Part shown: positions 33,413 through 36,337 of the stretch, one piece after another
Numbering within the stretch: the first letter of the stretch is position 1
Layout: every line of letters starts with the position of its first letter
DNA from: Candidatus Yanofskybacteria bacterium
Lineage (GTDB): Bacteria > Patescibacteriota > Minisyncoccia > 2-02-FULL-40-12 > IGHO2-01-FULL-4-A
Assembly (NCBI GenBank): GCA_903897805.1
Contig: CAIUCV010000021.1
Span: 1 to 61,435 of the forward strand
DNA length: 61,435 nucleotides
Direction of reading: 5' to 3'
Translations under genes and position numbers: made by a program
The notes under the pieces: model-generated
Seen by the model: only the letters and a program-made list of their open reading frames with translations
Database searches by the model: none
What the model was told of the DNA's origin: nothing

Positions 33413-33575
33413 TAAGGTATAACAATAAAGTTCTTTTATACTAAAACTTACAATTTTGCCACAGCAGAGAGCGCCTTGGGCGGACTTTCTCTGCTGTGGC
33501 AAAGCGAAGGCTGAGCCAAATCAAAACAGCGCAACGGACGTGTTCCGAAAGAACGTGTCCAAAGGAGAACGTGTC

Positions 33576-34253
33576 ATGTTTGACAAGTTTACTTTCAGTA
33601 GTGCCGGTGAAGTTCAAGAGGTAGAATTCGCTCTAGCTAGGGCGTGCTATACCCACCCCGAGGTCAAAGAGTTGTCGAAGGGCGATCTCTTGGGCCAGGT
33701 CCGCCAAATCATCCTTGGCCAAGCCGTAATCAAGCCGGTGGCCGAGGATGCCACTCGGGAGATCACTCTCAACGAAACCACGATCGTGGTGAACCTTGGT
33801 GCCGCACCTAAGCTACCATTCAATGGAGCAGAGGTCGAGAGCCACGCCGGCGAGGGTTGGGCTATCGTCGAGAAGAGTCCCGACGGATTGTATGTGAACG
33901 GCCGCAAGGTCGTATTGCATCTGTCCCGTCGGCAGCAGAATGGCAAGTCGCTCAAGGGCTACGAGCTTCGTGAAGAGCTGACGGGTAAGCCCGTACTCAA
34001 CGCGAATCTGCTCGACACGCTCGCAGACAACTCCCACCTCATACCCGAGGACTGGAAGAAGGACGAGCAGGGTAACACCCGCTACATCTTCTTCTGGGGC
34101 ACCATTTACCGCAGCTCGCGCGGCCACCTCTGTGTCCGCTATCTGTATTTCCACGTTGGGATGTGGGATCGGTACTACGACTGGCTTGACTACGACTGGC
34201 ACGGCAGCCGCCCCGCGGCTCTGCTCGCAAGTAGTAGGTCCTTGGACTTTTGA
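33576..34253 (+). CDS. DGR target (variable) protein with C-terminal VR; C-type-lectin-like fold suspected
   Basis: AAGGAG RBS before ATG 33576 gives 225 aa. The VR encodes YRSSRGHLCVRYLYFHVGMWDRYYDWLDYDWHGSRPAALLA at the C terminus. Confidence 0.92.
   Translation: MFDKFTFSSAGEVQEVEFALARACYTHPEVKELSKGDLLGQVRQIILGQAVIKPVAEDATREITLNETTIVVNLGAAPKLPFNGAEVESHAGEGWAIVEKSPDGLYVNGRKVVLHLSRRQQNGKSLKGYELREELTGKPVLNANLLDTLADNSHLIPEDWKKDEQGNTRYIFFWGTIYRSSRGHLCVRYLYFHVGMWDRYYDWLDYDWHGSRPAALLASSRSLDF
34107..34230 (+). repeat. DGR variable repeat (VR)
   Basis: 124-nt ungapped match to 34623-34746 with 16 mismatches, each opposite a TR adenine. The 3' 20 nt (CCCCGCGGCTCTGCTCGCAA) are identical. Confidence 0.98.
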
Positions 34254-34622: not shown

Positions 34623-34746
34623 AACCGCAACTCGAACGGCAACCTCTATGTCCGCTATCTGTATTTCAACGATGGGATGTGGAATCGGAACTACAACTGG
34701 CTTGACAACGACTGGAACGGCAACAACCCCGCGGCTCTGCTCGCAA
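34623..34746 (+). ncRNA. DGR template repeat (TR)
   Basis: AAC-rich copy of the VR, with 12 AAC/AAT codons in the VR-equivalent frame. A hairpin CTCTCCC-TTATT-GGGAGAG follows at 34759-34777. Confidence 0.97.
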
Positions 34747-34752
34747 CTTACT

Positions 34753-35112
34753 TCATTTCTCTCCCTTATTGGGAGAGTTTTGTTTTTGTAGCTGGCCATA
34801 CCAGCCACCGAGCATCCTGCCAATCTCGTCTATTTTTACGGATAGAGCTATATATTTCTTATTGTCCAAAGACTTGGTTTCCCAGAGTATCATCAAGAAT
34901 ATTTTTAATGTATCAACTTTTCTTATTGCTAGGCGGACATACGGTAGCTTTTCTTCACGCACCAAGAAACTAGCGGTTGCCAGTGCTTCTATGATTTCAA
35001 CGAAGAGAGCATCAATTCTGACGCCAAGCGAGTGCCTATGTGTTTTGGGTATAATTTGATAATATTCATACCAAAGCAAATAAGCACTTTTTACTTTCTG
35101 AAGCAGAGGCAA
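34753..35112 (-). CDS. avd: Avd-like accessory variability determinant (four-helix bundle); true start may be ATG 35168 across a C12 tract
   Basis: Basic helical protein of ~120 aa with IPKTHRHSLGVRID and a C-terminal EIGRMLGGW motif, adjacent to TR and RT. Confidence 0.88.
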   Translation of the reverse strand: MPLLQKVKSAYLLWYEYYQIIPKTHRHSLGVRIDALFVEIIEALATASFLVREEKLPYVRLAIRKVDTLKIFLMILWETKSLDNKKYIALSVKIDEIGRMLGGWYGQLQKQNSPNKGEK

Positions 35113-35147
35113 GAGCTGGGGGGGGGGGGCTTAGAAGAGGTATTTTT

Positions 35148-36137
35148 ATGAAAATCCAATTGGCTCATAATTATGAGTATATCATTTCTCTTGAAAATCT
35201 CCTTAATGCATGGAAGGAGTTTATTAAAGATAAAAAATTAAGGAAAGATGTGCAAATTTTTGAACTGGATCTGATGGGCAATATCATTTCGCTCCACAAC
35301 GATCTTGCCGCCAAAATATATAAGCATTCACCGTATCAGCCATTCAATATCTCAGATCCCAAGCCAAGAAAAATACACAAAGCTAGCGTCAGGGATCGGC
35401 TATTGCACCACGCTATATATCGGGCACTCTATCCATTTTTTGACAGAACTTTTATATCCGATTCTTATTCTTGCAGACTAAACAAAGGGACGCACAAAGC
35501 CATAAATAGGTTCTGTAATTTTGCATATAAGGTATCACAAAATCATAAGAAAACTGTGTGGGTTCTCAAGTGCGATATTAAAAAGTTTTTTGCTTCAATT
35601 GACCAAGATATTCTAGCCGAAATCATTAGAGATTATATACCCGACCCAGATATTGTCTGGCTTATCTCTCGAATCATCAGGAGCTTTTACTCAACGAATA
35701 TTGGTGTCGGTTTGCCCTTGGGAAATCTAACCTCACAGCTTCTGGTTAATATCTATATGACTAGGTTTGACCAATTTGTGAAGCATACACTAAAGGCAAA
35801 ATACTATATCCGCTATGCTGACGACTTTGTTATTTTATCTCCAGACAAAAAATGGCCTGAGGAAACAATTCCAAAAATCAGAGATTTTTTATGGAATAAA
35901 CTTCATCTTCAGCTACATCCAGATAAAGTATCAATTCAAACACTAACATCTGGTGTCGATTTTCTCGGTTGGGTGCACTTTCCAAACTACAGGGTTTTGA
36001 GGACCACAACCAAAAAGAGAATGTTTAGGAATATAAAAAATAAACAAGGGAATATAAATACGGTGCAATCTTATCTTGGGCTTATTAGTCATGGAAACTC
36101 AAGAAGATTAGAAGCAAGATTAGGGATTACCGATTGA
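35148..36137 (+). CDS. DGR reverse transcriptase
   Basis: 329 aa with RDRLLHHA, SYSCR..KGTH, LKCDIKKFF.SI, GLPLGNLTSQ, YIRYADDF and GVDFLGW. No maturase or endonuclease tail. Confidence 0.97.
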   Translation: MKIQLAHNYEYIISLENLLNAWKEFIKDKKLRKDVQIFELDLMGNIISLHNDLAAKIYKHSPYQPFNISDPKPRKIHKASVRDRLLHHAIYRALYPFFDRTFISDSYSCRLNKGTHKAINRFCNFAYKVSQNHKKTVWVLKCDIKKFFASIDQDILAEIIRDYIPDPDIVWLISRIIRSFYSTNIGVGLPLGNLTSQLLVNIYMTRFDQFVKHTLKAKYYIRYADDFVILSPDKKWPEETIPKIRDFLWNKLHLQLHPDKVSIQTLTSGVDFLGWVHFPNYRVLRTTTKKRMFRNIKNKQGNINTVQSYLGLISHGNSRRLEARLGITD

Positions 36138-36169
36138 GAGCATAGAGTAGTATAATTATTAAAAACGCA

Positions 36170-36313
36170 GTCGTAATGCCTTTTGGGCATTCCAGCGAGC
36201 GGATTGCTTGGTTAATTTTTGATATAATGTTTCGGCATCAAAAATTAAATCCGTGAGCTGAAATAGCGTAGCCGCCGCTGGAGCGGCGGAGCGTGCCCAG
36301 AAGGCATTATGAC
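36170..36313. repeat. Long palindromic element directly downstream of the RT
   Basis: GTCGTAATGCCTTTTGGGCA ... TGCCCAGAAGGCATTATGAC with internal hairpins. Confidence 0.78.
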
Positions 36314-36337
36314 GGAGTTTGTAATTTAATTCAAGAA

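Follow-up and report, generated by a model that had tools for sequence, protein, structure and literature searches.

In this study, we analysed a 61,435-nt stretch of DNA from a Candidatus Yanofskybacteria bacterium (contig CAIUCV010000021.1 of GenBank assembly GCA_903897805.1; hereafter the window), which carries a diversity-generating retroelement (DGR) whose accessory gene, avd, is associated with a run of 12 cytosines on the avd strand. We concluded, with a probability of roughly 0.68, that this run is a hypermutable simple sequence repeat (SSR) lying within the real 5′ coding region of avd and serving as a slipped-strand contingency switch that gates the DGR, with the consensus sequence of the window in the OFF state. 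Somewhat less firmly, we favor the view that contingency repeats of this kind gate targeted hypermutation across a large clade of Patescibacteria DGRs (111 of 135 sampled loci), in which the avd start codon would be hidden antisense in codon 7 of the reverse transcriptase (RT) gene and slippage in a disposable, disordered leader would toggle Avd and, with it, retrohoming.

On the forward strand, the 12 G residues are followed by 18 nt (CTTAGAAGAGGTATTTTT) and then by the ATG of the RT gene at 35148, both as described in the original prediction. No other homopolymer in the genome (621,693 bp in 23 contigs), whatever its base, is as long as this tract; the runner-up has 8 nt, six G/C runs of 8 occur, and no di- to hexanucleotide repeat is longer than 12 nt. 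Because it is unique in length in a genome of this size, the tract is more than a chance occurrence. The frame that begins with the minus-strand ATG at 35168 reads MSQLDFHKNTSSKPPPPSSCLCFRK, has the C12 after its codon 13 and terminates at the TAA at 35093-35091 after 25 aa. The avd frame is closed on its upstream side by the TAA at 35133-35131, after which it reads APPPQL-LPLLQKVK and continues as the avd body. The leader open reading frame (ORF) and avd are 1 nt out of phase, and by arithmetic one additional C, or the loss of two, would fuse them. Thus, reading of the minus strand and frame arithmetic bore out what had been proposed for the short ORF, for the closed avd frame and for a fusion of the upstream ATG to the Avd body at C13 or C10. 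The coding regions of RT and avd are arranged head-to-head and share 21 nt (35148-35168), with the first seven RT codons facing the avd leader. Therefore, the promoter of each gene must sit within the other gene, and the avd mRNA and the RNA that runs from the template repeat (TR) through RT would be mutually antisense across avd. One minus-strand promoter candidate, TTTTCA-16-CATAAT, was rejected, as it ends 1 nt before the ATG at 35168 and is too close to serve that start. A scan against Rfam returned two miRNA matches at chance level only (E = 0.35 and 0.62).

The locus is a bona fide DGR, with an adenine-specific pair of TR and variable repeat (VR), an RT and an Avd protein. All 15 mismatches between TR and VR across the 123-nt repeat fall at TR adenines (TR-A to VR-N). 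DGR-type RTs are recognized by the motif [ILV]GxxxSQ together with YxDD, and the RT of the window carries this motif and YADD. The avd ORF matched the Pfam family bAvd (PF22296; E = 7.7e-11; 42.9 bits, cut-off 40) and also NCBIfam DivGenRetAVD (E = 1.8e-18; 66.7 bits, below the 80-bit cut-off), covering model positions 1-103 of 104. One copy of avd is present in the genome. The gene order TR-(avd)-RT with avd inverted corresponds to the architecture named B3. The coordinates of these features are collected in Table 1.

Table 1. Positions in the window of the DGR components, the avd leader and the repeat.
Feature	Position	Strand	Remarks
Simple sequence repeat C12 (G12 on +) in the Avd leader ORF	35118..35129	-	Unique longest homopolymer of the genome; homologous repeat in 111/135 related loci
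Leader ORF, ATG 35168-35166 to TAA 35093-35091, 25 codons	35091..35168	-	Homologous frame open to the repeat in 108/109 loci
Proposed true avd start ATG, exact antisense of RT codon 7 (His, CAT)	35166..35168	-	CAT on the + strand
TAA closing the avd frame just upstream of the tract at C12	35131..35133	-	Frame reading
avd body, 119 codons from TTG 35112, four-helix-bundle Avd	34753..35112	-	Pfam bAvd PF22296, NCBIfam DivGenRetAVD
DGR reverse transcriptase	35148..36137	+	RVT_1 E = 1.2e-22; LGNLTSQ at residue 191, YADD at 223
Template repeat (TR)	34624..34746	+	123 nt; 15/15 VR mismatches at TR adenines
Variable repeat (VR), 3′ end of target ORF 33456-34253	34108..34230	+	123-nt pair with TR

Relatives of the locus were compared at the protein and DNA levels. 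Avd homologues numbered 2210 at E ≤ 1e-3, and the best 120 of the 2210 were examined. They comprise short forms, which start near PLLQK, and long forms, which carry a leader like that of the window in frame with the Avd body, as in P0002 (MNKLDFHKNTSSNPPPQL-LPLLQ) and P0012 (MTELDFHKNYSSKPPPQL-LPLLQ), and also in P0016. At the DNA level, 206 loci were brought together, namely 80 loci of species-representative genomes (all metagenome-assembled genomes (MAGs) of Patescibacteria type, by title), 80 metagenome loci, 45 loci of IMG/VR and the window, the species-representative and metagenome sets each being the best 80 of more than 550 relatives in their collection. Avd was located in the relatives by tblastn, and 60 of the 206 loci lacked an Avd match (upstream DNA missing, or distant phage DGRs) and were left out. 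In all 146 loci having both genes, avd lies on the strand opposite to RT. Eleven of these were dropped (eight exact duplicates, one at a contig edge and two with N), and 135 non-redundant loci, including the window, were analysed.

The evidence that the upstream ATG is a real start codon comes from the RT gene on the other strand. Residue 7 of RT is His in 109 of the 135 loci, and its codon is CAT in every one of the 109, whereas His codons elsewhere in the same RT genes are divided between 1089 CAT and 765 CAC (binomial p = 9e-26 for His7), and 12 other conserved His columns contain 41-79% CAT. Among 74 conserved two-fold-degenerate columns, only that of His7 has a codon purity of 1.0 (counted as 108:0 in the MAFFT column, with one row aligned elsewhere), and the other 73 range from 0.50 to 0.87. 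Set against this mixed background of CAT and CAC, the uniform codon indicates that the antisense ATG is under selection, apparently as the start codon of avd. The frame that it opens runs to the repeat without a stop in 108 of 109 loci, compared with 15 and 11 for the other two frames; in the part within the RT 5′ untranslated region (UTR) alone, the ATG frame is open in 92 of 93 and the other two in 78 and 35. TTA and CTA, which are stops when read antisense, are likewise avoided in RT codons 2-7 (9 of 69 Leu codons against a background of 29.8%, p = 0.0015). In loci L041 and L122, the ATG antisense to RT codon 7 has been lost (ATT), and another ATG stands directly before the poly-C (ATGAAC, then the C run); in this lineage the start codon seems to have been relocated, with an ATG still leading into a repeat.

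A simple repeat occupies the same site in 111 of the 135 loci. In 96 of the 135, it is a poly-C of at least 8 nt on the avd strand between RT and the Avd body, with lengths of 8 (n = 14), 9 (n = 23), 10 (n = 38), 11 (n = 17), 12 (n = 2) and 14 (n = 2). Another 15 have (CA)n (six loci), (GA)n (two), (CT)n (one) or a tetranucleotide repeat of 26-52 nt (six: ACGA, GCCA, GTCA, CAGC, AGCC and AACC). The remaining 24 have no repeat, several of them with C7. Since poly-C, dinucleotide and tetranucleotide units share one site, what the site conserves appears to be repeat-ness and not one particular sequence. No unit of 3 or 6 nt was found among the 111 repeat loci; every unit length present (1, 2 and 4) shifts the reading frame, which fits a control of frame and not of spacing. 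The tract is the unique longest G/C run of the fetched DNA (454 kb in total) in 94 of the 96 homopolymer loci, and the second-longest run is at most 7 nt in 95 of the 96. On a tree of the RT, which was built without the overlapping first nine residues, the class of repeat required 29 changes, compared with 36.4 ± 1.6 for shuffled labels, so that it is weakly inherited and often changing. In the clade of L043, L088, L099, L023, L019 and L025, whose Avd is 72-75% identical to that of the window, tetranucleotides of four unit sequences (ACGA, CCAG-type, GTCA and AACC; 26-52 nt) stand at this site in place of poly-C.

The frame in which the upstream ATG meets the Avd body varies among relatives. 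Among the 93 repeat loci that bear the ATG, it is in frame and open in 24, offset by +1 in 35 and offset by +2 in 34; the original prediction had proposed checking whether homologous avd genes keep a poly-C tract in variable frames. Of the 69 out-of-frame loci, 68 are open in the frames on either side of the repeat, so that a single repeat unit separates them from an intact ORF running from the ATG into Avd. Frame state is without phylogenetic signal, because its 43 changes on the RT tree equal those of shuffled labels (43.6 ± 2.6; 155 of 300 shuffles reach 43). In 46 of 101 OFF loci, the avd frame contains no ATG, GTG or TTG from the upstream stop to Avd residue 6; judging from their sequences, these loci have no way of producing a complete Avd through ordinary initiation in this frame, and the upstream ATG would be their sole start. 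The two closest non-identical pairs of loci both differ at the repeat. L041 (identical to L121) and L122 (identical to L123) align over 844 nt with no mismatches and one gap, which is C9 versus C10, and L035 and L110, 94.9% identical, differ in their (CA) tracts, which measure 21 and 15 nt. Near-identical assemblies are thus shown to vary in repeat length; the anatomy of the locus and the family-wide conservation of the ATG, the open leader and the repeat are shown as well.

The leader itself is predicted to be disposable and disordered. In an AlphaFold2 model of the long form P0012, computed from an alignment of 40 long forms (mean predicted local distance difference test (pLDDT) 85.4, predicted template modelling score (pTM) 0.77), four helices lie at residues 20-36, 41-67, 70-96 and 102-130, and residues 1-13 have a pLDDT below 50. 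The fold in the model sets in at the residue corresponding to PLLQK, exactly where the 119-aa ORF of the window starts. As the fold starts after the leader, the Avd family models are fully covered without it; as the leader lies outside the fold, variation in its length and composition (PPP, TNER, QPAS, THTH) would be tolerable.

Considering these results, we propose the following model. Avd would be translated from the ATG embedded antisense in RT codon 7, and translation would cross a predicted-disordered leader of about 18-22 residues containing the repeat before entering the four-helix bundle. Slippage during replication would alter the length of the repeat and would probably go uncorrected, because neither MutS nor MutL was found; mismatch repair may be absent from this genome, which would raise slippage at any repeat, as no MutS_V or MutL DNA_mis_repair domain was detected in the assembly (estimated to be 90% complete). 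Such changes in length would bring the ATG and the Avd body into a common reading frame or take them out of it. With the two in frame, full-length Avd would be made and the RT-Avd complex could produce mutagenic cDNA; out of frame, as at the C12 of the window, translation would stop after 25 codons and the DGR would be silent or nearly so, until a gain of 1 nt or a loss of 2 nt restored the ON state. We infer from this arrangement a rate of switching and effects on the level of Avd protein and on retrohoming; the step from gating Avd to gating hypermutation is drawn by analogy with the role of Avd in the Bordetella phage DGR. By sequence, the window has what a contingency locus would have, namely a mutable 5′ repeat with open flanking frames and an upstream ATG as the apparent real start, and a difference in tract length between close strains is seen in the relatives only. 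The earlier suggestion that slippage toggles Avd and that the assembly shows the OFF state is thus supported, with strong comparative evidence, by the uniform CAT codon, the open leader, the recurrent repeat, fusion by one unit, the natural homologues with the leader in frame and the L041/L122 pair.

The state of the tract in the source samples was assessed in assembled Logan contigs, which give the consensus only and in which minority lengths are not visible. For the window, 17 sequencing runs were found as contigs. In three samples of one study, the tract is 12 nt long without an indel: the X2 contig matches the window tract exactly; X1, which may be the source, has a G>A at 35126; and X3 has a G>T at 35127 and ends at 35163. 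In X5, from another study, contigs break on both sides of the tract and leave 35084-35229 uncovered. Because the contigs of three samples agree on 12 nt, the OFF consensus (C12) is reproducible and is not a slip of the assembler.

Several observations weigh against a heritable switch. The three samples of the window strain show no heterogeneity in length at the contig level, all having 12 nt, and MAGs built from short reads can misstate the length of a homopolymer by one. The share of ON loci, 24 of 93 (26%), does not differ from one third (p = 0.15), so there is no sign of selection for the ON state. In favor of a switch, loci without a repeat are mostly in frame, unlike repeat loci, when a tract threshold of 8 is used (10/16 versus 24/93, Fisher p = 0.0068), at a threshold of 7 (10/13 versus 24/96, p = 4e-4) and where RT aligns from residue 3 or earlier (7/7 versus 23/89, p = 1.7e-4), but at a threshold of 9 the contrast is gone (12/29 versus 22/80, p = 0.24). 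These Fisher tests ignore phylogeny, and a test on phylogenetically independent pairs, of which there were only six, was without power, with 1.3 in the same direction, 0.0 in the opposite direction and 4.7 with no difference (median p = 1). No Shine-Dalgarno-like sequence was seen by eye before the ATG at 35168 or the TTG at 35112, and a scan for consensus promoters found six sites where 3.9 ± 1.8 were expected, none above chance. Finally, where codon 1 of Avd encodes Leu it is TTG in 39 of 105 cases, as in the window, compared with a background of 17.9% (p = 2.6e-6), and a fallback start at this downstream TTG may make the OFF state leaky.

An explanation that we consider unlikely, while the strongest of those competing with a DNA-level switch, is non-heritable slippage, in which stutter of RNA polymerase or a ribosomal -1/+1 shift on C_CCC_CCC, within four Pro codons, would supply a small constant fraction of in-frame Avd and the tract would act as an attenuator. 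Homopolymers of at least 9 nt are known sites of RNA polymerase slippage, and CCC-C is a known +1 site. An out-of-frame consensus in 69 of the 93 repeat loci looks like a tolerated working state, and the unchanged 12 nt of the window in three samples fits equally. Programmed recoding keeps one direction, however, and no conserved frame offset was found in the family, where the three states number 24, 35 and 34 and are random on the RT tree. In addition, 15 loci use di- or tetranucleotide repeats, at which DNA slippage has been reported but, to our knowledge, slippage at the RNA or ribosome level has not, and DNA length varies between otherwise identical assemblies. Since the offset is unfixed and di- and tetranucleotides occupy the same site, slippage at the RNA or ribosome level cannot be the family-wide principle; it may coexist with the DNA switch and add leakiness.

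More doubtful still is the possibility that Avd starts downstream, at the TTG at 35112 or by reinitiation, with the leader as a regulatory upstream ORF or with the repeat acting on the forward strand in the RT 5′-UTR or the TR-RT RNA. The 119-aa ORF covers nearly the whole NCBIfam Avd model, the modelled fold begins where this ORF does, and TTG is enriched at codon 1. The original prediction had stated that only a TTG start without a ribosome-binding site was left in the avd frame: the TTG at 35112 is indeed the only ATG, GTG or TTG near the avd start, the called ORF of 119 aa beginning there, and it has no such site by eye, but the importance of this fallback may have been understated in view of the family-wide enrichment. 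However, 66 of the 105 Leu cases have TTA or CTN as codon 1, and TTG is therefore not a general start; the 46 of 101 OFF loci described above have no start at all in the avd frame. A leader that functioned as RNA only would leave the invariant antisense ATG and the stop-free leader unexplained. As for the forward strand, the tract lies 18 nt upstream of the RT ATG, beside the GAGG of RT, and two of the three genomic G8 runs stand 4-5 nt upstream of an ATG in the manner of a ribosome-binding site (C16:40861-40868 and C17:67413-67420; GGGGGGGGATTTATG and GGGGGGGGTGTTTATG). Against a role in spacing or on this strand, the repeat units are of 1, 2 and 4 nt and never of 3 or 6, and (TG)n, (TC)n and tetranucleotides cannot serve as a G-rich ribosome-binding site. 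A role of the forward-strand poly-G as a G-quadruplex was likewise set aside, given these other repeats at the site.

That the tract is an artefact of assembly or sequencing, with a true length of 13 or 10 nt and an intact avd, is very improbable: poly-G is error-prone on Illumina, substitutions occur within the tract (X1, X3), contigs break at it (X3, X5) and depths are 3.6-11, but a second assembler gave 12 nt without an indel in three samples, X2 exactly, and 69 of the 93 independent repeat loci have an out-of-frame consensus, among them loci with di- and tetranucleotide repeats, which are not prone to such errors.

Switchable general mutators are known, in which mutS or mutL is turned on and off through repeats or prophages. 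The contingency switch proposed here would resemble them as a stochastic genetic switch of the mutagenesis state, but general mutators act genome-wide, whereas this switch would target a single 123-nt VR. It also resembles the SSR contingency genes of Campylobacter, Neisseria and Haemophilus, as these are described in the accessible parts of the sources (PMC6321876; PMC5084427; PMC11868660), in that the start codon is closely followed by a G/C tract of 8-14 nt or by a repeat with di- or tetranucleotide units. Open flanking frames, a frame that varies among relatives and the lack of detected mismatch repair genes are further points of likeness. In contrast to those genes, which mostly encode surface structures, restriction-modification systems and receptors, the gene gated here would be an accessory factor of targeted hypermutation, the host belongs to the Patescibacteria, and the tract is the sole long repeat in its genome.

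Among known DGRs, the window shares its gene order and inverted avd with the B3 architecture of the candidate phyla radiation (CPR), and the available portion of the report of Wu et al. (2018; PMC5758913) gives TR-(avd)-RT of type B3 for 90% of their CPR set; that portion mentions no homopolymer, no repeat in avd and no avd start inside RT. The DGR of Bordetella phage BPP-1 is similar in its RT, its Avd and a TR/VR pair with adenine-specific differences. According to the section available of Handa et al. (2018; PMC6182149), cDNA synthesis by the Bordetella phage DGR requires bRT, Avd and the DGR RNA, and these three suffice for it. The same part of PMC5758913 gives the gene order of BPP-1 as avd-TR-brt, all on one strand; avd of the window, by contrast, is encoded opposite to RT, overlaps the start of RT and contains the tract. 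A 2024 preprint on a Bacteroides DGR (10.1101/2024.11.15.621889) states, in the text accessible to us, that how hosts balance the benefit and cost of retrohoming is unknown and that the regulation of DGRs is largely unknown, and it expects bursts separated by quiescence; in that text, neither a repeat switch in avd nor an antisense avd start appears. Our literature search, covering titles and the openings of abstracts, found no report that connects simple repeats or slipped-strand switching with DGRs or Avd, and an avd start embedded antisense in RT likewise did not turn up. SSR phase variation and DGRs are each well known; a repeat switch in avd and an antisense avd start may be new.

If the proposed switch is real, a hypermutable switch would stand over a hypermutator, and cells nearly free of regulators would obtain bursts of diversification between periods of quiescence. 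It would be a concrete mechanism of DGR restraint, readable from sequence, in the lineages richest in DGRs, and DGR activity would be predictable from tract phase in metagenomes. Furthermore, as a stretch of about 1.1 kb contains both VR and the tract, the switch state can be connected with the VR haplotype on individual long reads. The annotation would change too: in this clade, avd is often called from an internal TTG or as a short form, and the starts of RT and avd overlap on opposite strands.

Two further structures were noticed in the window. A terminator-like hairpin, TTCTCTCC...GGGAGAG followed by TTTTGTTTTT, lies at 34757-34777 on the forward strand, with its tail extending to 34787, directly 3′ of the TR and overlapping the last codons of avd. 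The C-terminal tail of Avd, KQNSPxKGEK, is nearly invariant among 40 homologues; in the P0012 model, residues 135-137 of this tail have a pLDDT below 50 and no helix is predicted beyond residue 130. Because the tail is nearly invariant and its last residues are nevertheless of low pLDDT and not helical, its conservation may belong to the RNA hairpin 3′ of the TR and not to the protein. A 32-nt inverted repeat (36158-36189 and 36294-36325; arms 84% complementary and separated by 104 nt) lies just 3′ of the RT stop codon and covers the start of the following ORF.

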